IMG/VR virus record: IMGVR_UViG_2541047860_000003
Location: 1-34,596 of that record
Length of the DNA stretch: 34,596 nucleotides
Source of the DNA: a virus
Taxonomy: Duplodnaviria; Heunggongvirae; Uroviricota; Caudoviricetes
Strand: one strand, 5' to 3'
A program made the position numbers and the translations under genes. Below the pieces are notes generated by a model. That model saw nothing but the letters and a program-made list of their open reading frames with translations, ran no database searches and was not told the origin of the DNA. This document shows positions 1,459 through 14,169 of the stretch, one piece after another. Position 1 is the stretch's first letter. The number at the start of each line of letters is the position of its first letter.

Positions 1459-2622
1459 TTACACATCATTAGTACCTTCCTTATTTTTTGACTGGGACAA
1501 ATTTGGGACCGATGGGTTCAGGATCGAGTCTATTTGCCGTGCGTGTTCGGTAAGGTGATTAGGTGCAAGGTGAGCATATCGACGAACCATTTCGATAGAC
1601 TCCCAGCCTCCCATTTCCTGTAACACTGACAACGGGACTCCGGCTTGAACCAGCCAACTTGCCCAGGTGTGTCTCAAGTCGTGAAATCTGAAATCATCAA
1701 TACCAGCCCGTCTCAGCGCCGCTTTCCAGGCTGTGTTTGCGTCATACCGCATCTTCCTTACTGTTGGCGCTTTCGTTCCGTCTGGTTTGGTACAGCTTTC
1801 CTTGTACACAAATACCCAACGGTGATGATTCCCGATTTGTTTTTTCAATACGCGACATGCAGTATCATTCAGCGCAACGCCAATTGCGCGGTTTGATTTA
1901 CTCTCTTCCGGGTTTATCCATGCCACCCGGCGCTGCATATCTATTTGTTGCCATTCAAGGTTGATGATGTTCGAGCGTCTTAAGCCTGTTGCCAGTGCAA
2001 ATTCAACAACAGACTTTAATGGCTCCGGACATTCATCAATCAGCCTTTGTGCTTCATGGGGCTCCAGCCAGCGGATCCGTTTATTCTTTGGTTGAGGCAC
2101 TTTAATAATTGGTGCCTTATCCAGCATTTTCCATTCACGCTCTGCGGCTCTTAGTAGGGCCTTTATAAATGAAAGATGCGTAGCCTTCGTTGCAACGGAC
2201 GCTGGTTTTGGCGTGTATTCTGGAACAGGTTTCCCTTTTTTTCTGCATGCTTCTGCCCTGAGTTTCCAGTTTTCCTCATGACGCCGGTTCGTCATTTTCT
2301 GCATTGCTGAATAAATTTTTGATTCAGTAATGTCTCTTAGTTGCATTCCTGCGAAATGTTGAAGCCAGAATCCGATCCGGCTTTTGTCATCGTCCAGTGA
2401 TTTTTTATGTGCTTTCTCTTCAAGCCACCTGACACACGCTTCCTCGAACGTTATATCAGGTATTTCACCAAGTTTGCTGACCCGCCATGCTTCAGCCTTT
2501 AGCTTGTCATGGAGTTCTGTCGCCTGCCTTTTGTCCTTTGTTCCAAGAGACTGTTTAAATCTTTTACCGTTCGGCAATGTGAAACTGGCGTACCATATTT
2601 CACCTCTGCGGAAGAGTGACAT
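1459..2622 (-). CDS. int: Tyrosine-type phage integrase
   Basis: 387-aa ORF 15 bp downstream of the tRNA; C-terminal catalytic region ...[42 protein letters not shown] fits the R..H-x-x-R..Y tyrosine recombinase signature. Confidence 0.85.
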
Positions 2623-6842: not shown

Positions 6843-7535
6843 TTAATTATGTCTCTTAAGGGTTTGAGACTGACTGATTAAGACCTTTCCAAAGACCATG
6901 AATCGGTGTTCGTTTTCGCTAGTAATTCCCCATTCACGGTAAATCTGGTTATCAGAAATCACCAGCAGTTTGTCAGGAATCATTTGAAGTCTTTTAACGT
7001 ATATTTTGTCATCAAAACCAAAGACATATATACCATCACCATCAAACTGATTGATGCTGACATCAACGAAGATGAGATCTCCTGGCTCAATGGTTGGACA
7101 CATACTGTCCCCACGAACGTTGATAACTTTGATGTGATTGGCTGGTCGTCCGCCGAACATTGATACAGCATTATCAGTTCTGTATTCGATGGCATGAATC
7201 ACATCAATGACATCACCGCCCTGGATAAGGCCATTTCCCGCACTGGCACTGATATCCAGCATTTCAATACGGAACACATCCTTCACCTGCGCAACATCCT
7301 CATTATTACTGTTTTTATATACAGTATTACTTTTGTGGGCAGAGGTAAAGAGATCAGCAATATCAACACCTAAGCTCTTGGCAATATTACTCAGTGTTTG
7401 TTCGGTAAATTGTTTTTGCTTACCCGTTTCTAAGCGCGAGATGTTCGCCGCATCTACTCCTATTGCTTCAGCGAGATCGGCGATTTTCATGTTCTTCGCT
7501 TGGCGAAGTTGTCTGACTCGGTTTCCTATGTTCAT
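6843..7535 (-). CDS. cI: CI-type phage repressor (HTH + S24 LexA-like peptidase)
   Basis: N-terminal HTH (QAKNMKIADLAEAIGVDAANISRLETGK), Ala-Gly site (SASAGNG), S24 motifs (GDSM ... KR); divergent from cro across an operator-bearing intergenic region. Confidence 0.9.
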   Translation of the reverse strand: MNIGNRVRQLRQAKNMKIADLAEAIGVDAANISRLETGKQKQFTEQTLSNIAKSLGVDIADLFTSAHKSNTVYKNSNNEDVAQVKDVFRIEMLDISASAGNGLIQGGDVIDVIHAIEYRTDNAVSMFGGRPANHIKVINVRGDSMCPTIEPGDLIFVDVSINQFDGDGIYVFGFDDKIYVKRLQMIPDKLLVISDNQIYREWGITSENEHRFMVFGKVLISQSQTLKRHN

Positions 7536-7632: not shown

Positions 7633-7893
7633 ATGCAATCACCATTACGAAATGTGCGTAAGGCGCATGGTTTCACTTTGCAGCATGTTGCTGCGGGTGT
7701 TCAAGTCAATCCAGCGACGTTGAGTCGTATTGAGAGGCTGGAGCAGATTCCATCTATCGAGCTTGCAGAACGTTTAGCCAATTTTTTTAAGGGTGAAGTC
7801 AGCGAAATGCAGATTCTTTATCCGGCACGTTTTCAATCTAGCCAAAACCAGAATGGGTTTAAACCACAGGAACAGGAGGTGAACCGTGGGTAA
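7633..7893 (+). CDS. cro: Cro-like HTH regulator
   Basis: 86-aa ORF with HTH (TLQHVAAGVQVNPATLSRIE), GGAGG SD, divergent from cI. Confidence 0.75.
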   Translation: MQSPLRNVRKAHGFTLQHVAAGVQVNPATLSRIERLEQIPSIELAERLANFFKGEVSEMQILYPARFQSSQNQNGFKPQEQEVNRG

Positions 7894-8437
7894 GCATCAC
7901 TGGAAAGTAGAAAAACAGCCTGAGTGGTACGTGAAAGCTGTCAGAAAAACTATCGCAGCGTTGCCGGGGGGGTACGCTGAAGCTGCTGACTGGCTGGATG
8001 TAACAGAGCACGCATTATTTAACCGCCTTCGTGCCGATGGCGATCAGATTTTCCCGCTGGGATGGGCAATGATTTTGCAACGTGCTGGTGGAACTCACTT
8101 CATTGCTGACGCTGTGGCGCAGTCTGCAAATGGCGTCTTTGTGTCTCTTCCTGATGTCGAGGATGTGGACAACGCCGATATCAACCAACGCCTGCTGGAA
8201 GTCATTGAACAGATCGGCAGTTATTCAAAACAGATTCGTTCAGCAATTGAAGACGGTGTAGTGGAACCGCATGAGAAGACAGCAATTAACGATGAGCTGT
8301 ACCTCTCAATTTCGAAGCTGCAGGAGCATGCAGCTCTGGTCTACAAAATCTTTTGCGTTTCAGAAAGTAGTGACGCCCGCGAGTGTGCAGCTCCGGGCGC
8401 CGTGGCGTGTCGTGACTGTGGAGAAACTAACGCATGA
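7886..8437 (+). CDS. CII-like lysogeny regulator (phage 186 CII/CP76-type, by position and size)
   Basis: 183-aa ORF with GTG start after AGGAGG SD, immediately after cro; family assignment from memory only. Confidence 0.45.
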
Positions 8438-8612
8438 ACAGTTTAACAACACACTACCGTCGCTCGCAACTGATTGCGCTTCCTGTACCGGGTGGAAAAG
8501 CGAAGGTGGAGTATTGCTATGCAGTAAATGTACCAGGTGACAGGGAAATTGTAACCCACAGCTTTGCAGAGTGGGCTGTGGGTGATTTCAACCGGCAGAA
8601 GGAGACAGTCCT

Positions 8613-8792
8613 TTGCGACAAGTTAACCGCTGGTTCAAAGATCACTACGGAGTGCCCGTCAGAGTCATTCGTTGGGAGCCGGAAACACAACGTGTTATCT
8701 ACCTCCGCGAAGGCTATGAGCATGAGTGCTTCAGCCCGCTCGAACAGTTTCGTCGTAAATTCAGGGAAATAGAGGTCGGTCATGAGCACTAA
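8613..8792 (+). CDS. DUF4222-like small protein (TTG start)
   Basis: Alternate frame reads ...[52 protein letters not shown], matching the recalled DUF4222 pattern; AAGGAG SD 8 nt upstream of TTG at 8613. Overlaps the listed 8434..8772 ORF in another frame. Confidence 0.35.
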
Positions 8793-9723
8793 ATTAACCG
8801 GCTATGTATGGGATGGTTGCGCTGCATCAGGCATGAAATTATCCAGCGTGGCAATTATGGCCCGCCTGGCTGATTTCAGTAATGACGAAGGTGTGTGCTG
8901 GCCATCAATTGAAACCATTGCCCGCCAGATTGGCGCGGGAATGAGTACCGTCAGAACGGCTATCGCACGGCTGGAAGCAGAAGGCTGGTTAACGCGTAAG
9001 GCGCGTCGCCAGGGTAACCGCAATGCGTCGAATGTTTATCAGCTTAACGTTGCGAAGCTTCAGGCAGCGGCATTTTCTCAACTGTCAGATTCTGACCCGT
9101 CAAAATCTGACGCATCAAAATCTGACCCGTCAAAATTTGATGCGTCGAAATCTGGCAAAAAAGCGGGTTTTCACCCGTCAGAATCTGGCGGGGATCCGTC
9201 AGTAAAATCAAAACATGATCCGTCAGATAAAAAACCTTCTCGTCCGGACGCTTCGCAACCGGACACGCAGACGGCTGAACAGGAGTTTTTAACTCGCCAT
9301 CCTGATGCGGTTGTATTCAGCCCTAAAAAGCGCCAGTGGGGAACGCAGGATGATTTGACCTGCGCACAGTGGCTCTGGAAAAAAATCATCGCCCTGTACG
9401 AGCAGGCCGCCGAATGTGACGGCGAGGTGGTTCGTCCCAAAGAACCGAACTGGACAGCCTGGGCAAACGAAATTCGCCTGATGTGTGTGCAGGATGGTCG
9501 TACTCATAAACAAATCTGCGAGATGTACAGCCGCGTCAGTCGCGATCCGTTCTGGTGCCGTAACGTGCTCAGCCCGTCGAAGCTGCGGGAAAAATGGGAT
9601 GAGCTTTCCCTGCGCTTATCGCCGTCCGTCAGCACGTACACCGAAAAACGCGAAGACCCGTACTTCAAAGCCAGTTACGACAACGTGGACTACAGCCAGA
9701 TCCCGGCAGGATTCAGGGGGTGA
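8782..9723 (+). CDS. Replication initiator, lambda O-like (HTH N-domain, repeat linker)
   Basis: 313-aa ORF; N-terminal winged-helix region (GMSTVRTAIARLEAEGWLTRKAR); internal tandem 15-bp repeats encoding SDPSK/SDASK as in iteron-bearing O-type genes. Confidence 0.7.
   Translation: MSTKLTGYVWDGCAASGMKLSSVAIMARLADFSNDEGVCWPSIETIARQIGAGMSTVRTAIARLEAEGWLTRKARRQGNRNASNVYQLNVAKLQAAAFSQLSDSDPSKSDASKSDPSKFDASKSGKKAGFHPSESGGDPSVKSKHDPSDKKPSRPDASQPDTQTAEQEFLTRHPDAVVFSPKKRQWGTQDDLTCAQWLWKKIIALYEQAAECDGEVVRPKEPNWTAWANEIRLMCVQDGRTHKQICEMYSRVSRDPFWCRNVLSPSKLREKWDELSLRLSPSVSTYTEKREDPYFKASYDNVDYSQIPAGFRG
9091..9150. repeat. Four tandem 15-bp iterons inside the O-like gene (putative phage ori)
   Basis: TCTGACCCGTCAAAA / TCTGACGCATCAAAA / TCTGACCCGTCAAAA / TTTGATGCGTCGAAA in tandem, followed by further CCGTCAG copies and an A-rich stretch to about 9240. 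Confidence 0.5.
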
Positions 9724-9725
9724 TC

Positions 9726-10214
9726 ATGAGTCTTTTGAATGACGTTCAGAAATTCATTGAAGCCCATCCGGGGTGTACTTCCGGAGACATTGCGGATGCT
9801 TTTGCAGGTTACTCACGACAGCGCGTTCTGCAGTCAGCAAGCAAGTTACGTCAGAGTGGGCGTGTGGCTCACCGTTGTGAAGGGGATACACGCAGACATT
9901 TCCCGCGGCTGACTGAGATACCGCAGGAGCCGGAACCGCAACCAGTTCGTGAATCCAGACCTGTGCGCAATTTCTATGTCGGCACTAACGATCCCCGGGT
10001 GATTTTGTGCCTGACCCGCCAGGCGGAAGAACTGGAGTCCAGGGGCTTATACCGTCGTGCTGCAACGGTGTGGATGGCGGCATTCCGTGAAAGCCACTCC
10101 CAGCAAGAGCGAAACAATTTTCTTGCGCGTCGTGAGCGGTGTTTACGGAAAAGCAGCAAGCGCGCTGTATCGGGTGAAGAGTGGTATCTGTCAGGGAATT
10201 ACGTGGGGGCTTAA
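9726..10214 (+). CDS. PerC-like transcriptional regulator
   Basis: C-terminal LESRGLYRRAATVWMAAFRESHSQQERNNFLARRERCLRK resembles the PerC/Pch motif as recalled; stop overlaps the next gene start (TAATG). Confidence 0.45.
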   Translation: MSLLNDVQKFIEAHPGCTSGDIADAFAGYSRQRVLQSASKLRQSGRVAHRCEGDTRRHFPRLTEIPQEPEPQPVRESRPVRNFYVGTNDPRVILCLTRQAEELESRGLYRRAATVWMAAFRESHSQQERNNFLARRERCLRKSSKRAVSGEEWYLSGNYVGA

Positions 10215-10540
10215 TGACGACGTTAACTCAATGCCAGCAGCAGGTGCTGGATATGCTGATTTCTTACCAGAAAGAACGTGGCTTCCCGCCAACCAATCAG
10301 GAGGTGGCTACCATGCTGGGATACCGTTCAGTGAATGCAGCGGTGGAGCATCTTCGCGCACTGGAGAAAAAAGGCGTCATCACGATAAAGCGTGGCGTGG
10401 CCCGGGGCATCACGCTTCATACCGCGGTGAAGGACGACGACAGCGAGGTGGCCGGGATTATCCGCGCACTGCTTGCTGGTGAGGAAAACGCCAGGCTGCG
10501 TGCAGCCCACTGGTTACATGAGAGGGGGCTGAAAGTATGA
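10214..10540 (+). CDS. LexA N-terminal DNA-binding-domain protein (no peptidase domain)
   Basis: TARQQEV/DMLISY...GFPPTNQEVATMLGYRSVNAAVEHLRALEKKGVITIKRGVARGITL aligns with the LexA winged-helix N-domain; the ORF ends after about 108 aa with no S24 domain. Confidence 0.6.
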   Translation: MTTLTQCQQQVLDMLISYQKERGFPPTNQEVATMLGYRSVNAAVEHLRALEKKGVITIKRGVARGITLHTAVKDDDSEVAGIIRALLAGEENARLRAAHWLHERGLKV

Positions 10541-10926
10541 AGCTGATTCTGCCTTTTCCACCCAGCGTGAACACCTACTGGCGACACCCCAACAAAGGGG
10601 CATTTGCTGGTAAGAGCCTGATAAGCGCGGCGGGGCGAAAATTCCAGAGTGCGGCGTGCACAGCAATAGTTGAGCAGTTACGTCGTCTGCCGAAACCAAC
10701 GTCGGCACCTGCTTCAGTGGAGATCGTGTTGTTTCCTCCGGATAACCGGATCCGCGATCTGGACAACTATAACAAGGCGCTGTTTGACGCCCTGACCCAC
10801 GCGGGTGTGTGGGAAGACGACAGTCAGGTGAAAAGAATGCTGGTGGAGTGGGGACCGGTTATCCCGGAAGGGAAGGTCGAGATCACTATCAGTAAGTACG
10901 AGAAAACGGCGGGTGCAGCCGCCTGA
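10537..10926 (+). CDS. rusA: RusA Holliday junction resolvase
   Basis: LPFPPSVNTYWRH...DLDNYNKALFDALTHAGVWEDDSQV matches RusA catalytic-region hallmarks. Confidence 0.85.
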   Translation: MKLILPFPPSVNTYWRHPNKGAFAGKSLISAAGRKFQSAACTAIVEQLRRLPKPTSAPASVEIVLFPPDNRIRDLDNYNKALFDALTHAGVWEDDSQVKRMLVEWGPVIPEGKVEITISKYEKTAGAAA

Positions 10927-10945
10927 TCAAGAGGAGAAACGAAGT

Positions 10946-11743
10946 ATGAATAATCTGATGGTCATTGATGGTATTGAAGTTCGTCGTGATGCTTTTGGGC
11001 GTTACAGCCTGAACGATCTGCACAGGGCTGCCGGTTCTCTGGATAAGCATAAGCCTGCATTCTGGCTCCGCAATGAGCAAACTGAACGTTTAATAAGCGA
11101 GTTGCAGATTTGCAACTCGGTCAATATAGAGCCAGTTAACGTTATTCGTGGCGGAAATAACCAGGGGACGTATGTCTGCAAAGAACTGGTGTATGCCTAT
11201 GCAATGTGGATCAGCCCGTCATTCCATCTGAAGGTGATCCGTACTTTCGACATGGTAACCAGCGCACCGGAAAAATTATCCGGACAGGCTGCTGACAAGA
11301 TGCAGGCTGGTGTGATTCTGCTGGACTTTATGCGCCGGGAATTAAACCTGTCTAACTCTTCAGTGCTTGGGGCCTGTCAGAAACTCCAGGAGGCTGTTGG
11401 CTTACCGAATCTGGCACCGCGCTATGCCATTGATGCTCCTGCTGACGCGCCTGATGGCTCAAGTCGCCCTACGCTGTCGCTGAGTGCACTGCTGAAACAG
11501 TATGGTATCCGCCTTACGGCTAATCAGGCATATCACCAGATGGCGAAGCTGGGGATCGTCGAACAGCGCGAACGATACAGCCGTACAGCGATTAACAACA
11601 TCAAAAAATTCTGGTCGCTGACGGCGAAAGGCTGCATGTTCGGCAAGAACATCACCAGTCCCGCAAATCCGCGCGAGACGCAGCCGCATTTCTTCGAATC
11701 CCGATTCCCTGAGCTGTTAAAGCTGCTCGATACCGTTCATTGA
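10946..11743 (+). CDS. KilA-N domain antirepressor-like protein
   Basis: N-terminal KilA-N-like region (MVIDGIEVRRDAFGRYSLNDLHRAAG...YVCKELVYAYAMWISPSFHLKV); ATG at 10946 after GAGGAG. Confidence 0.65.
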   Translation: MNNLMVIDGIEVRRDAFGRYSLNDLHRAAGSLDKHKPAFWLRNEQTERLISELQICNSVNIEPVNVIRGGNNQGTYVCKELVYAYAMWISPSFHLKVIRTFDMVTSAPEKLSGQAADKMQAGVILLDFMRRELNLSNSSVLGACQKLQEAVGLPNLAPRYAIDAPADAPDGSSRPTLSLSALLKQYGIRLTANQAYHQMAKLGIVEQRERYSRTAINNIKKFWSLTAKGCMFGKNITSPANPRETQPHFFESRFPELLKLLDTVH

Positions 11744-11744
11744 G

Positions 11745-12740
11745 GTGACTGTGAGAGCACTACTGACCCCTGAAATTGCCCCGCGTATGGGGATCGTATT
11801 GTTCAGACCTGGTTCAGAGCTGATGCCCCTGTTTATGCAGGGGCGTGTCCTGCTGGAGCCTGAGCCGGAACGTTATTCATCTTTCGCCAGCGGTGCCGTT
11901 CCGGCGGCATCACAACCGCTGGCGGATGATCCTGCCGTTCGGGCCGTGTTCCGCAATGAGGCAGTGATCCGTCGTGCTGGTGGCGTGGAATGTCTTGAAA
12001 GCTGGTTACTTCGTGAAAAAGGCTGCCAGTGGCCTCATTCCGACTGGCACAGCGAGAACATGACCACAATGCGACACGCTCCGGGTGCAATCCGTCTGTG
12101 CTGGCACTGCGATAACCAGCTGCGCGATCAGTTCACGGAACGGCTGGAATCAATGGCAACGGATAACTGTGCCCGCTGGGTGTTGTCTGTTGTGCGTCGG
12201 GATCTCGGTTTTGATGACAGTCACGTTGTGACAATGCCGGAACTGTGCTGGTGGCTGATTCGTAATGACCTGGCGGATGCCTTACCGGAAAGTGCAGCCC
12301 GTAAGGCACTGAGATTACCGAAGCCTGTTGTGCCGTCTGTCACCCGGGAAAGTGACCTTGTGCCTTCGGTTCCTGCCACCAGCATCATCCAGGATAAGGC
12401 AAAAAAGGTGCTGGCGCTGAAAGTGGATCCGGAGTCGCCGGAGTCTTTTATGTTACGCCCAAAACGTCGCCGCTGGGTTAATGAAAAGTACACGCGCTGG
12501 GTTAAGACACAGCCGTGTGCATGTTGTGGAAAGCCCGCTGATGATCCCCACCACCTGATAGGCCACGGTCAGGGGGGAATGGGTACAAAAGCGCATGACC
12601 TCTTTGTGTTGCCTTTGTGCAGAAAGCATCACGACGAGCTGCATGCGGATACCGTGGCATTTGAAGAGAAGTATGGCTCCCAGCTGGAGCTGATATTTCG
12701 TTTTATCGATCGTGCGCTGGCAATTGGCGTGCTGGCCTGA
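11745..12740 (+). CDS. DUF968-type phage protein with C-terminal HNH-like zinc motif
   Basis: C-terminal CACCGKPADDPHHLIGHGQGGMGTKAHDLFVLPLCRKHHDELH pattern recalled for DUF968 nin-region proteins. Confidence 0.6.
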   Translation: MTVRALLTPEIAPRMGIVLFRPGSELMPLFMQGRVLLEPEPERYSSFASGAVPAASQPLADDPAVRAVFRNEAVIRRAGGVECLESWLLREKGCQWPHSDWHSENMTTMRHAPGAIRLCWHCDNQLRDQFTERLESMATDNCARWVLSVVRRDLGFDDSHVVTMPELCWWLIRNDLADALPESAARKALRLPKPVVPSVTRESDLVPSVPATSIIQDKAKKVLALKVDPESPESFMLRPKRRRWVNEKYTRWVKTQPCACCGKPADDPHHLIGHGQGGMGTKAHDLFVLPLCRKHHDELHADTVAFEEKYGSQLELIFRFIDRALAIGVLA

Positions 12741-12757
12741 TCTTGTGGAGAAAGTTG

Positions 12758-13135
12758 ATGCGTGATATTCAAATGGTTCTGGATCGTTGGGGAGCATGGG
12801 CGGCGAGTGATAGTTCAGGAGTAGACTATTCTCCTATAGCTGCTGGGTTTAAAGGGCTTCTTCCCTATACAAGCAAAACACGTCAGGCATGTTCAGATAG
12901 TGATGCATTAATTATTGAAAGTTGTCTTGCTCGTCTAAGGCAAAAAAGGCCGGACGAACATTCGCTTCTTGTTGCCCATTATCTATACGGTATCTCTAAA
13001 AGAAAGCTCGCCAAGGCTCGTAAAAAGGATGAGAAACTAATACGCATTGAGATACAGATGGCTGAGGGGTTTATTGATGGCTGCCTATCGATGTTGGAAA
13101 TTAGTCTAGAGATGGACCCCGAAGTTAAAGATTGA
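12758..13135 (+). CDS. Late-gene antiterminator Q (QuuD / phage 21-type)
   Basis: MRDIQMVLDRWGAWAASD...IAAGFKGLLPY matches the QuuD-type Q N-terminus as recalled; ATG at 12758 after GGAG SD. Confidence 0.75.
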   Translation: MRDIQMVLDRWGAWAASDSSGVDYSPIAAGFKGLLPYTSKTRQACSDSDALIIESCLARLRQKRPDEHSLLVAHYLYGISKRKLAKARKKDEKLIRIEIQMAEGFIDGCLSMLEISLEMDPEVKD

Positions 13136-13141
13136 TTATTG

Positions 13142-13164
13142 AAGCCCGATTACTCGGGCTTTTG
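13142..13164. terminator. Hairpin terminator shared by Q (+) and the convergent 339-aa gene (-)
   Basis: AAGCCCGA-TTAC-TCGGGCTT followed by TTTG on the plus strand; the 339-aa gene stop codon lies in the loop. Confidence 0.6.
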
Positions 13165-14169
13165 TTCCACATCTCGAACATAGAGAATTACTGCTGACTT
13201 AATGTCACCATCGACGTGTTTTGCGTTAATGCTCAAATGTACAGGCTTTCTTTCCCACTCAGCTCGCTGCAATGCTTCTTTGTTTCCGGATTCATCAAGG
13301 AAAACATCCTGAACTACGCAGGTTAGACGTTGGTCGGTATCTACGCGTCGGACCTTAACTTTGAAACTCTCTGGGTCAGTATTATTGACTTCTTCAATTC
13401 GGTAAATACCATCAATCCTCATTTCTGATGAACGTCTACGAGCATTCGTAACCAACTCTTTCGCCATTTCAGAATCAATAGTAACGCCATCAATTTGAGC
13501 GTTATCTGAACGCACAAAGGATTTGACCATTTGGGTTTTAGCGTCATACGACATACGGTCCATGTTATCGAGAAGTGGTTTTTCCGCAATCATTTCTGAA
13601 ATAACCCGCAGGCGTTTAGTTTCTTGTTCGCTCATGATCTGCATAGTCCGGAGATGTTCTTTCTCTCCATCCTTAGCAATTTCTGCAAGGCGAATATCTT
13701 TGCGGTTGTCCAAGAACCGTTTAAATACTGTTACTCCGCCCCAGATGACTGCTGCGCCGAGAACAGTAAACATGATCTCAGTTGCGTTCATTTTACCAAC
13801 AAGTTCCTGTGTGAGTTTGGTTAAAAAGCCATCAATATTGATTTCTACTATTGAAGAACCTTGTTCTACCGTAACTTCTATTTCTAGGGCATCAAGTTCT
13901 TCTTTGGTCAGTTTGCGGACGTCAGGGACACCGTACTTGGCAAGGGCATATGATTTGTTGATTTGAGCTTGCATTTCAACAAATCCCTTCATAACTGAAG
14001 GTGTTAGCGATCTGTTGAATTTTTCACCGGTTAATCTGATGGTAAGGTTTGGCCATCCGTTGAAACTTAAACTGTCAGGTAAACCATAACCATCAAGATA
14101 GCTTTCAAGCAAATCGAAGGCTTGCTGCTCAGATTCAATGTCTACATGAATCTCATCAAACTTATCCAA
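13150..14169 (-). CDS. Hypothetical 339-aa single-pass membrane protein (reverse-oriented cargo between Q and lysis genes)
   Basis: Long ORF on the opposite strand to all flanking late genes; TTG start preceded by GAGGA with 7-nt spacer; one hydrophobic segment near the middle (ATEIMFTVLGAAVIWGGVTVF); AT-richer than neighbours; no recognisable catalytic motif. Confidence 0.6.
   Translation of the reverse strand: MDKFDEIHVDIESEQQAFDLLESYLDGYGLPDSLSFNGWPNLTIRLTGEKFNRSLTPSVMKGFVEMQAQINKSYALAKYGVPDVRKLTKEELDALEIEVTVEQGSSIVEINIDGFLTKLTQELVGKMNATEIMFTVLGAAVIWGGVTVFKRFLDNRKDIRLAEIAKDGEKEHLRTMQIMSEQETKRLRVISEMIAEKPLLDNMDRMSYDAKTQMVKSFVRSDNAQIDGVTIDSEMAKELVTNARRRSSEMRIDGIYRIEEVNNTDPESFKVKVRRVDTDQRLTCVVQDVFLDESGNKEALQRAEWERKPVHLSINAKHVDGDIKSAVILYVRDVEQKPE

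Follow-up and report, generated by a model that had tools for sequence, protein, structure and literature searches.

The locus and its distribution

The window, by which we mean the whole stretch of 34,596 nucleotides analyzed here, is a lambdoid prophage of the SfII/SfV/mEp460 type from E. coli or Shigella. It contains a gene for a LexA-like protein, which lies between a PerC-like gene and the Holliday junction resolvase gene rusA (Table 1). The coordinates given to this open reading frame in the initial annotation are all correct, as are both of its junctions. It begins with the ATG at 10214, which overlaps the TAA of the PerC-like gene (10212 to 10214) in a TAATG, and ends with the TGA at 10538 to 10540; the rusA ATG at 10537 lies inside this stop, forming an ATGA overlap.

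Table 1. Coordinates of the LexA-like gene, its parts, and other features of the window
Feature	Position	Strand	Basis or remark
Integrase gene	1459-2622	-	
cI, HTH and S24 domains	6843-7535	-	
Perfect SOS box TACTGTTTTTATATACAGTA inside cI	7307-7326		Sole exact CTGT-N8-ACAG in the window
cro	between cI and cII		
cII, CP76 type	7886-8437		
O-like replication gene	8782-9723		
PerC-like/YfdN-family gene, upstream	9720..10214	+	Pfam PerC, 39.1 bits (cut-off, 22.6); PHROG 1324
LexA-N-terminal-domain-only gene, 108 residues	10214..10540	+	ORF, PF01726, PHROG 362, identical E. coli copies
Winged helix-turn-helix, residues 1-69	10214..10420	+	AlphaFold2, Foldseek, alignments
Conserved two-helix hairpin, residues 75-87 and 93-103, ..IIRALLAGEENARLRAAHWLHERG..	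10436..10522	+	Model, conservation, dN/dS
rusA (Holliday junction resolvase), downstream	10537..10926	+	Pfam RusA, 56.1 bits (cut-off, 22.8)
KilA-N domain gene	10946-11743	+	Pfam
DUF968/HNH gene	11745-12740	+	Pfam
Antiterminator Q gene	12743-13135	+	Pfam
Remainder of the conserved block (KilA-N, DUF968/HNH, Q)	10946..13135	+	
Lysis and morphogenesis genes	after Q		

When is the LexA-like gene expressed? Plus-strand genes abut or overlap throughout positions 8434 to 13135, and a simple scan found no plus-strand promoter-like site between cro and the LexA-like gene and no plus-strand terminator-like site between the cro region (7652 to 7669) and position 12169. From the tight packing and the lack of such sites, we infer that it is a delayed-early gene of the rightward cro-to-Q operon, in a nin-type position, which would be expressed early in the lytic cycle and silent in the lysogen. 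This corrects the first reading of the gene: its expression is probably lytic, and the product is probably not a repressor made in the lysogen. Directly after Q, a 338-residue gene runs antisense (13150 to 14169, minus strand) in the region where the late promoter is expected; it matches PHROG 6191 (E value of 1.6e-152), has no Pfam match, and is probably a moron (accessory cargo gene).

Over the 1.2-kb stretch from the PerC-like gene through the LexA-like gene to rusA, the DNA is 96 to 98% identical in SfV, SfII, mEp460, Stx2a_1447, SKA5, and about 40 other phage records. The gene is named orf42 in SfV, "LexA DNA binding domain protein" in mEp460, "repressor, lexA family" in Stx2a_1447, and "LexA-like protein" in SKA5. 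Of 5426 complete E. coli genomes, 2233 (41%) carry it, with a maximum of four copies per genome and 100% identical copies included; its PGAP name in this species is "LexA family transcriptional regulator." Being annotated already in RefSeq and PHROGs, in thousands of genomes, the gene is not a new object. However, our search of the full-text literature found no functional study of this coliphage family of LexA N-terminal domains, only annotation tables; genomics papers on Stx phages merely tabulate pfam01726, "LexA family transcriptional regulator," as a gene family.

The neighborhood is conserved as well. The order PerC-like gene, LexA-like gene, rusA, KilA-N gene, DUF968/HNH gene, and antiterminator gene, with one or more DNA methylase genes after the PerC-like gene in many phages, is common to mEp460 and to prophages of Salmonella (59% protein identity) and Citrobacter (65%). 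Gene coordinates in the Salmonella and Citrobacter loci (L081 to L087) also give the 4-base overlap with rusA. Among IMG/VR loci picked by cII alone and having enough flanking sequence, 57 of 60 carry the LexA-like gene, which is a core component of the backbone and not a mobile accessory gene. The length of the protein is uniform, with 105 to 108 residues in E. coli, Citrobacter, Hafnia, and Salmonella.

Several variants of this arrangement were observed. Many relatives have a Dam-type N6-adenine methylase gene inserted between the PerC-like and LexA-like genes (for example, at 11270 to 11923 in mEp460, locus L208), and in a Salmonella locus (L083, 4851 to 7985) the insert is called as a single product of 1044 residues with DNA_methylase and MethyltransfD12 matches. 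The junction, TAATG in the window, appears to be a preferred insertion point for methylase genes carried as cargo. In locus L001, the PerC-like gene has lost 5 bases close to its end, which produces an in-frame ORF of 271 residues (9512 to 10327) that fuses the PerC-like protein to the LexA N-terminal domain, and longer database variants (P0001, P0005, and P0141) may be similar fusions or start-site miscalls. Other database proteins, 140 to 350 residues long (P0143, P0148, P0150, P0153, P0156, and others), have two separate LexA DNA-binding profile matches each and may be natural tandem LexA heads, that is, single-chain dimers.

The DNA-binding domain and the hairpin

The phage protein is a LexA reading head without the protease. 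Residues 1 to 65 match all 65 positions of the Pfam model LexA_DNA_bind (PF01726; E value of 2.9e-19; 69 bits against a cut-off of 23.7), which bears out the family assignment first made from the sequence alone, and residues 1 to 108 align with positions 1 to 106 of the 106 positions of PHROG 362 ("transcriptional repressor"; E value of 7e-58). The closest solved relative in a PDB sequence search is the N-terminal domain of E. coli LexA (1lea; E value of 8e-16), aligned over residues 2 to 69 without gaps. The S24 autopeptidase domain is absent, as had been noticed at the outset: Pfam gives no Peptidase_S24 match for the protein but does give one for cI of the same window. Against the lexA equivalog model TIGR00498, the protein reaches 67.4 bits, below the cut-off of 110.95, and aligns with positions 1 to 91 of 203 only. 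Because the C-terminal domain was sought and found absent, we do not class the protein as a LexA repressor proper. The phage gene was probably captured from an enterobacterial lexA.

An AlphaFold2 model of the 108-residue protein, built from 30 family members (mean pLDDT of 82.7), predicts helices at residues 6 to 22, 28 to 35, and 40 to 52 and strands at residues 56 to 58 and 66 to 68 for the winged helix-turn-helix. Its best Foldseek match is a LexA-DNA complex (3jso_B; E value of 2.8e-6; rmsd of 1.0 Å over 68 columns; 50% identity), in agreement with the LexA winged-helix fold proposed earlier.

Which DNA sites might this domain read? In the LexA crystal structure, direct readout of CTGT is due mainly to S39, N41, A42, and E45 (review PMC11442139), and the older, NMR-based contact list adds E44 (PMC3091678, PMC13416735); we took the contact residues from secondary sources (PMC11442139, PMC3091678). 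The alignments place the recognition helix of the phage protein, R38-S-V-N-A-A-V-E-H-L47 (RSVNAAVEHL), opposite R-S-P-N-A-A-E-E-H-L of LexA. The likeness to LexA thus extends to S39, N41, A42, and E45, which are all identical, but not to E44, which is V in the phage protein. In 30 family sequences (Escherichia, Citrobacter, Hafnia, and Salmonella; 49 to 96% identity), S39 and N41 are invariant and E45 is nearly so, position 42 is A, S, or T, and position 44 is V or A. Twelve distant full-length representatives (33 to 49% identity) have A, V, F, T, L, or Y at position 44, never E; two truncated genuine LexAs in the same alignment carry E-E at positions 44 and 45. Position 40 is variable within the family. 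Judged from these alignments, the reading surface is largely that of host LexA, with one systematic, family-defining change at position 44. The replacement of E44 could alter affinity or specificity. Since the four base contacts are retained, the protein may recognize CTGT-type half-sites.

Winged helices are common in initiators, and one could see in the protein, instead of a transcription regulator, a DNA-binding accessory of replication or recombination that, for example, targets or modulates RusA or the O-like initiator on phage DNA. Consistent with this, the gene lies between the replication gene and rusA, its overlap with rusA is conserved in three genera, and the protein has a weak match to PHROG 678 ("replication initiation O-like"; E value of 0.0087). 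However, this match is marginal compared with the LexA matches, a conserved overlap with rusA is ordinary operon packing, and the retained residues read specific bases, which suggests operator recognition. We consider an accessory role of this kind very unlikely.

The region that takes the place of the S24 domain had been described as a short charged tail. It does replace that domain, but the last ~38 residues are more than a charged tail and hold a conserved helical hairpin under purifying selection. In the AlphaFold2 model, a linker of low confidence (residues 72 to 74) leads into the two helices, each of which has one hydrophobic face. The tail is a unit of ~30 residues with the pattern ..E-x-x-x-[IL]-[IL]-R-x-L-[LV]-A-G-E-E-N-A-R-x-R-A-x-x-[WY]-L-H-[ED]-[RK]-G.., in which L86, A97, and L101 are invariant and A88, G89, E90, E91, N92, A93, and R96 are nearly so (30 sequences, down to 49% identity). 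The architecture of a winged helix-turn-helix plus hairpin is found also in distant representatives at 33 to 49% identity. For copies from E. coli, Salmonella, and Citrobacter, dN/dS is 0.07 to 0.20 overall, and for the part outside the winged helix-turn-helix it is ~0.15 (E. coli versus Salmonella); all of these values are rough, because dS is saturated.

Could the gene be a decaying, functionless remnant of a full-length lexA or repressor gene? It encodes a truncated form of a two-domain protein, and the databases hold frameshifted and fused variants. Yet its length is uniform, dN/dS is 0.07 to 0.2, the novel tail is conserved, and 41% of the complete E. coli genomes carry it. On the strength of these conservation data we exclude decay, which would be an extremely improbable explanation.

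Lone hairpins of this type are usually stabilized by pairing, and for this reason we suggest that the hairpin, a candidate oligomerization or partner surface, probably dimerizes or binds a partner. MAFFT aligns LLAGEE of the tail with the cleavage-site segment of LexA, VAAGEP, and the TIGR00498 alignment extends to position 91, so that the hairpin may descend from the LexA hinge. The A88-G89 dipeptide of this segment aligns near A84-G85 of LexA and lies inside a predicted helix. The protein has no protease domain able to cut it in cis, and because the dipeptide is missing from more distant relatives it is probably no conserved site of cleavage. A Foldseek search for the fold of the hairpin gave, apart from the N-terminal domain of LexA, only loose and uninformative whole-chain matches of the MarR, MntR, and ArsR types (rmsd of ~10 Å).

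A different view of the hairpin is that its contacts with another protein (for example, the PerC-like protein, RNA polymerase, or host LexA or RecA) are what matters and that the DNA-binding domain serves only as a tether. The hairpin matches or exceeds the linker and wing in conservation and is retained in relatives at 33 to 49% identity, and its possible origin from the hinge, as read from the LLAGEE alignment and the reach of the equivalog model, would fit such contacts. On the other hand, more distant relatives lack the A-G dipeptide, the sequence and model data indicate no partner, and a methylase gene often stands between the PerC-like and LexA-like genes, so that the pair is not strict. 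Protein contacts as the main function therefore seem improbable to us.

SOS boxes as candidate targets

The perfect SOS box inside cI falls within the sequence that links the HTH domain to the S24 domain. It is of the high-affinity type. Its extended form is TACTGT-TTTTATAT-ACAGTA, and the chance of such a 12-base specification is ~0.002 per window. Across 19 cI alleles, gathered without reference to the box, all 12 bases of the arms stay the same, whereas variation is seen in the spacer center and in the six flanking bases on each side; invariant arms amid variable flanks argue for selection on a LexA-type operator. The box occurs in the SfII/mEp460 immunity type. A consensus scan finds no promoter beside it, and the best -10 candidate seen by eye (AATAAT, cI strand) is not kept across the alleles. 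It is possible that the box acts as a roadblock or belongs to an internal or antisense promoter.

The LexA-like gene is carried by 44 of the 50 box-bearing IMG/VR loci that have at least 6 kb of downstream sequence. We nevertheless rejected a coupling between box and gene. When loci are chosen by cII, the gene is present in 51 of 52 loci without the box and in 6 of 8 with it; the association is one of backbone linkage. With the backbone fixed (57 of 60 cII loci), co-occurrence statistics are uninformative on targets. The box in cI is a possible cis target that is not specifically linked to the LexA-like gene.

Related loci have SOS boxes elsewhere. In ~25 of 80 loci (L001 to L080), a gene for a 350-residue N6_N4 DNA methylase (Pfam E value of 2e-42), found 4 to 6 kb downstream of the LexA-like gene, has a strong SOS box covering its codons 3 to 9 (TACTGTAAAAATAAACAGTG; L020, 15872 to 15891), suggesting a LexA-controlled prophage gene; this box is absent from the window. 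A further box, TACTGTATTTATGAACAGTG, is found in the 150-bp intergenic region between rusA and the KilA-N gene in L001 (10765 to 10784) and in L050, in both at an offset of +766 from the start of the LexA-like gene. The KilA-N gene of these two loci looks LexA controlled, although the phage repressor is of the S24 type. In the window, the KilA-N gene follows rusA after a short gap (10927 to 10945) that contains no SOS box.

Roughly one-half of the 80 loci lack any SOS box of this kind within 10 kb of the LexA-like gene, and in the loci of Salmonella and Citrobacter no SOS-like box is present within ~8 kb of it. The box-free loci of E. coli, Salmonella, and Citrobacter mean that a cis target is not required. 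Should the protein read SOS boxes, then those of its targets that are constant must lie in trans. We also considered CTGT/ACAG pairs at noncanonical spacings as the signature of a different dimer. In the window, there are three pairs each at spacings of 7 and 19, with ~0.5 expected, and these counts are too low for any one site to stand out.

Possible functions and known systems

Why would a phage encode a LexA that lacks its protease? We tentatively favor a RecA-insensitive binder of SOS-box-type sites that is made in lytic growth, a reading that is quite possible if short of probable. The protein combines a stand-alone LexA DNA-binding domain with a short linker and a helical hairpin. Transcribed with the early-right cro-to-Q operon, it would appear only during lytic growth, and the hairpin would supply the dimerization that the missing C-terminal domain normally gives. 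RecA-stimulated self-cleavage cannot remove the protein because it has no protease domain. It would occupy operators of the SOS-box type on the host chromosome, in LexA-controlled elements resident in the same cell, and on SOS-boxed phage genes, and this occupancy would coincide with the destruction of host LexA. We hypothesize that part of the SOS regulon is thereby repressed again and that the phage benefits from this.

In favor of the SOS-box binder, related phages bear strong SOS boxes on phage genes (cI, the N6_N4 methylase gene, and upstream of the KilA-N gene). Moreover, Neher and colleagues reportedly found in 2003 that the free N-terminal fragment of LexA retains residual operator binding and that its removal by ClpXP gives full derepression; residual binding by the fragment makes repression by a stable protein consisting of the N-terminal domain only plausible. 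Against it, position 44 is never E in the family, boxes in cis are often absent, and the one precedent for such a protein, gp6 of phage GIL01, has diverged and is an activator.

This precedent supplies the other regulatory reading. GIL01, a tectivirus of Bacillus thuringiensis, encodes gp6, a truncated LexA homologue that is 44% identical to the host LexA DNA-binding domain (PMC6182141). gp6 binds, through K38, to a palindrome that its authors consider different from the site of host LexA, and it is an activator of the late promoter P3 (PMC6182141). By analogy, the coliphage protein could be a phage-specific transcription factor with its own operator that controls a phage promoter (for example, for KilA-N, Q, or late timing) and leaves the host SOS response untouched. 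Such a role would agree with the replacement of E44 throughout the family, the variable position 40, and the fixed place of the gene in a regulatory and DNA metabolism block with a second DNA-binding regulator, the PerC-like protein. However, the four residues that read bases in the crystal structure of host LexA are retained, unlike in gp6, no conserved alternative palindrome was found (the CTGT/ACAG spacing counts in the window being too few), and late transcription in such phages already lies with the Q antiterminator. We regard a private regulator of this type as the main rival reading, a serious but somewhat unlikely possibility.

Extended to the whole family, which is present in ~40% of E. 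coli genomes, in phages of Shigella, and in prophages of Salmonella and Citrobacter, the SOS-box binder would make a large group of lambdoid prophages the carriers of a natural RecA-proof LexA. This protein would join the LexA reading head to a new hairpin dimerizer and, early in lytic growth, close SOS operators again after LexA cleavage. It would silence SOS-boxed phage genes and LexA-controlled competitors, such as antirepressors of other prophages, colicin or lysis genes, and SOS toxins. In this generality the proposal is unlikely, in our estimate.

The initial observation is correct and statistically secure, and the interpretation given to it is a reasonable hypothesis that is in part supported. 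Our analysis adds the hairpin under purifying selection, the loss of E44 with the other contacts kept, and the fixed block of PerC-like gene, (methylase gene), LexA-like gene, rusA, KilA-N gene, DUF968 gene, and Q. The interest of the family lies in its prevalence, in the lack of a functional study in the literature we found, and in the ease of a decisive test. If SOS boxes are bound, many prophages of E. coli, Shigella, and Salmonella, including Stx2-converting ones, reshape the host DNA damage response during induction, which would have consequences for the antibiotic induction of Shiga toxin phages, for SOS-driven mutagenesis, and for the way in which co-resident prophages compete. If the protein has its own operator instead, it would be the second independent case, after GIL01 gp6, of a LexA reading head used as a private phage regulator.

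How does the protein compare with known systems? With E. coli LexA (1lea, 3jso) it shares the winged helix-turn-helix fold, ~50% identity over residues 2 to 69 without gaps, and S39, N41, A42, and E45 as well as K53, G54, R64, and G65. It differs from LexA in having no S24 peptidase and dimerization domain and no Ser119 and Lys156, in carrying V or A at position 44 in close relatives, and in the two-helix hairpin that replaces the C-terminal domain. In addition, it is encoded in a phage early operon, whereas lexA is an autoregulated host gene. The PHROG 362 proteins of SfV, SfII, mEp460, and Stx2 phages belong to the same family and do not differ from it; their names are annotation only.

A phage LexA DNA-binding domain without a protease is a kind of protein with a characterized precedent, and gp6 is the only characterized phage-encoded truncated LexA homologue that we found in the literature. 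Both proteins are LexA DNA-binding domains without the cleavage domain that are encoded by temperate phages (PMC6182141). gp6 is made after induction (PMC6182141), and the position in the operon suggests the same timing for the coliphage protein. gp6 is described as a winged helix-turn-helix only, whereas the coliphage protein adds the conserved hairpin tail. Because gp6 has changed its specificity and activates transcription, the repressor reading of the coliphage protein is not safe by analogy alone. However, gp6 is a proven activator with changed specificity, whereas the coliphage protein, located in a lambdoid nin-type region, keeps the reading residues of host LexA, and these host-like residues make a changed specificity less likely.

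Functional analogues of the proposed RecA-proof DNA binding exist in the noncleavable LexA alleles (for example, G85D or S119A) and in the LexA fragment of residues 1 to 84, a cleavage product. The PDB entries 1jhf and 1jhh, which represent such alleles, are both among the Foldseek matches of our model. Those forms of LexA are full-length dimers or an unstable fragment, whereas the phage protein is the product of a natural separate gene with a C-terminal module of its own.
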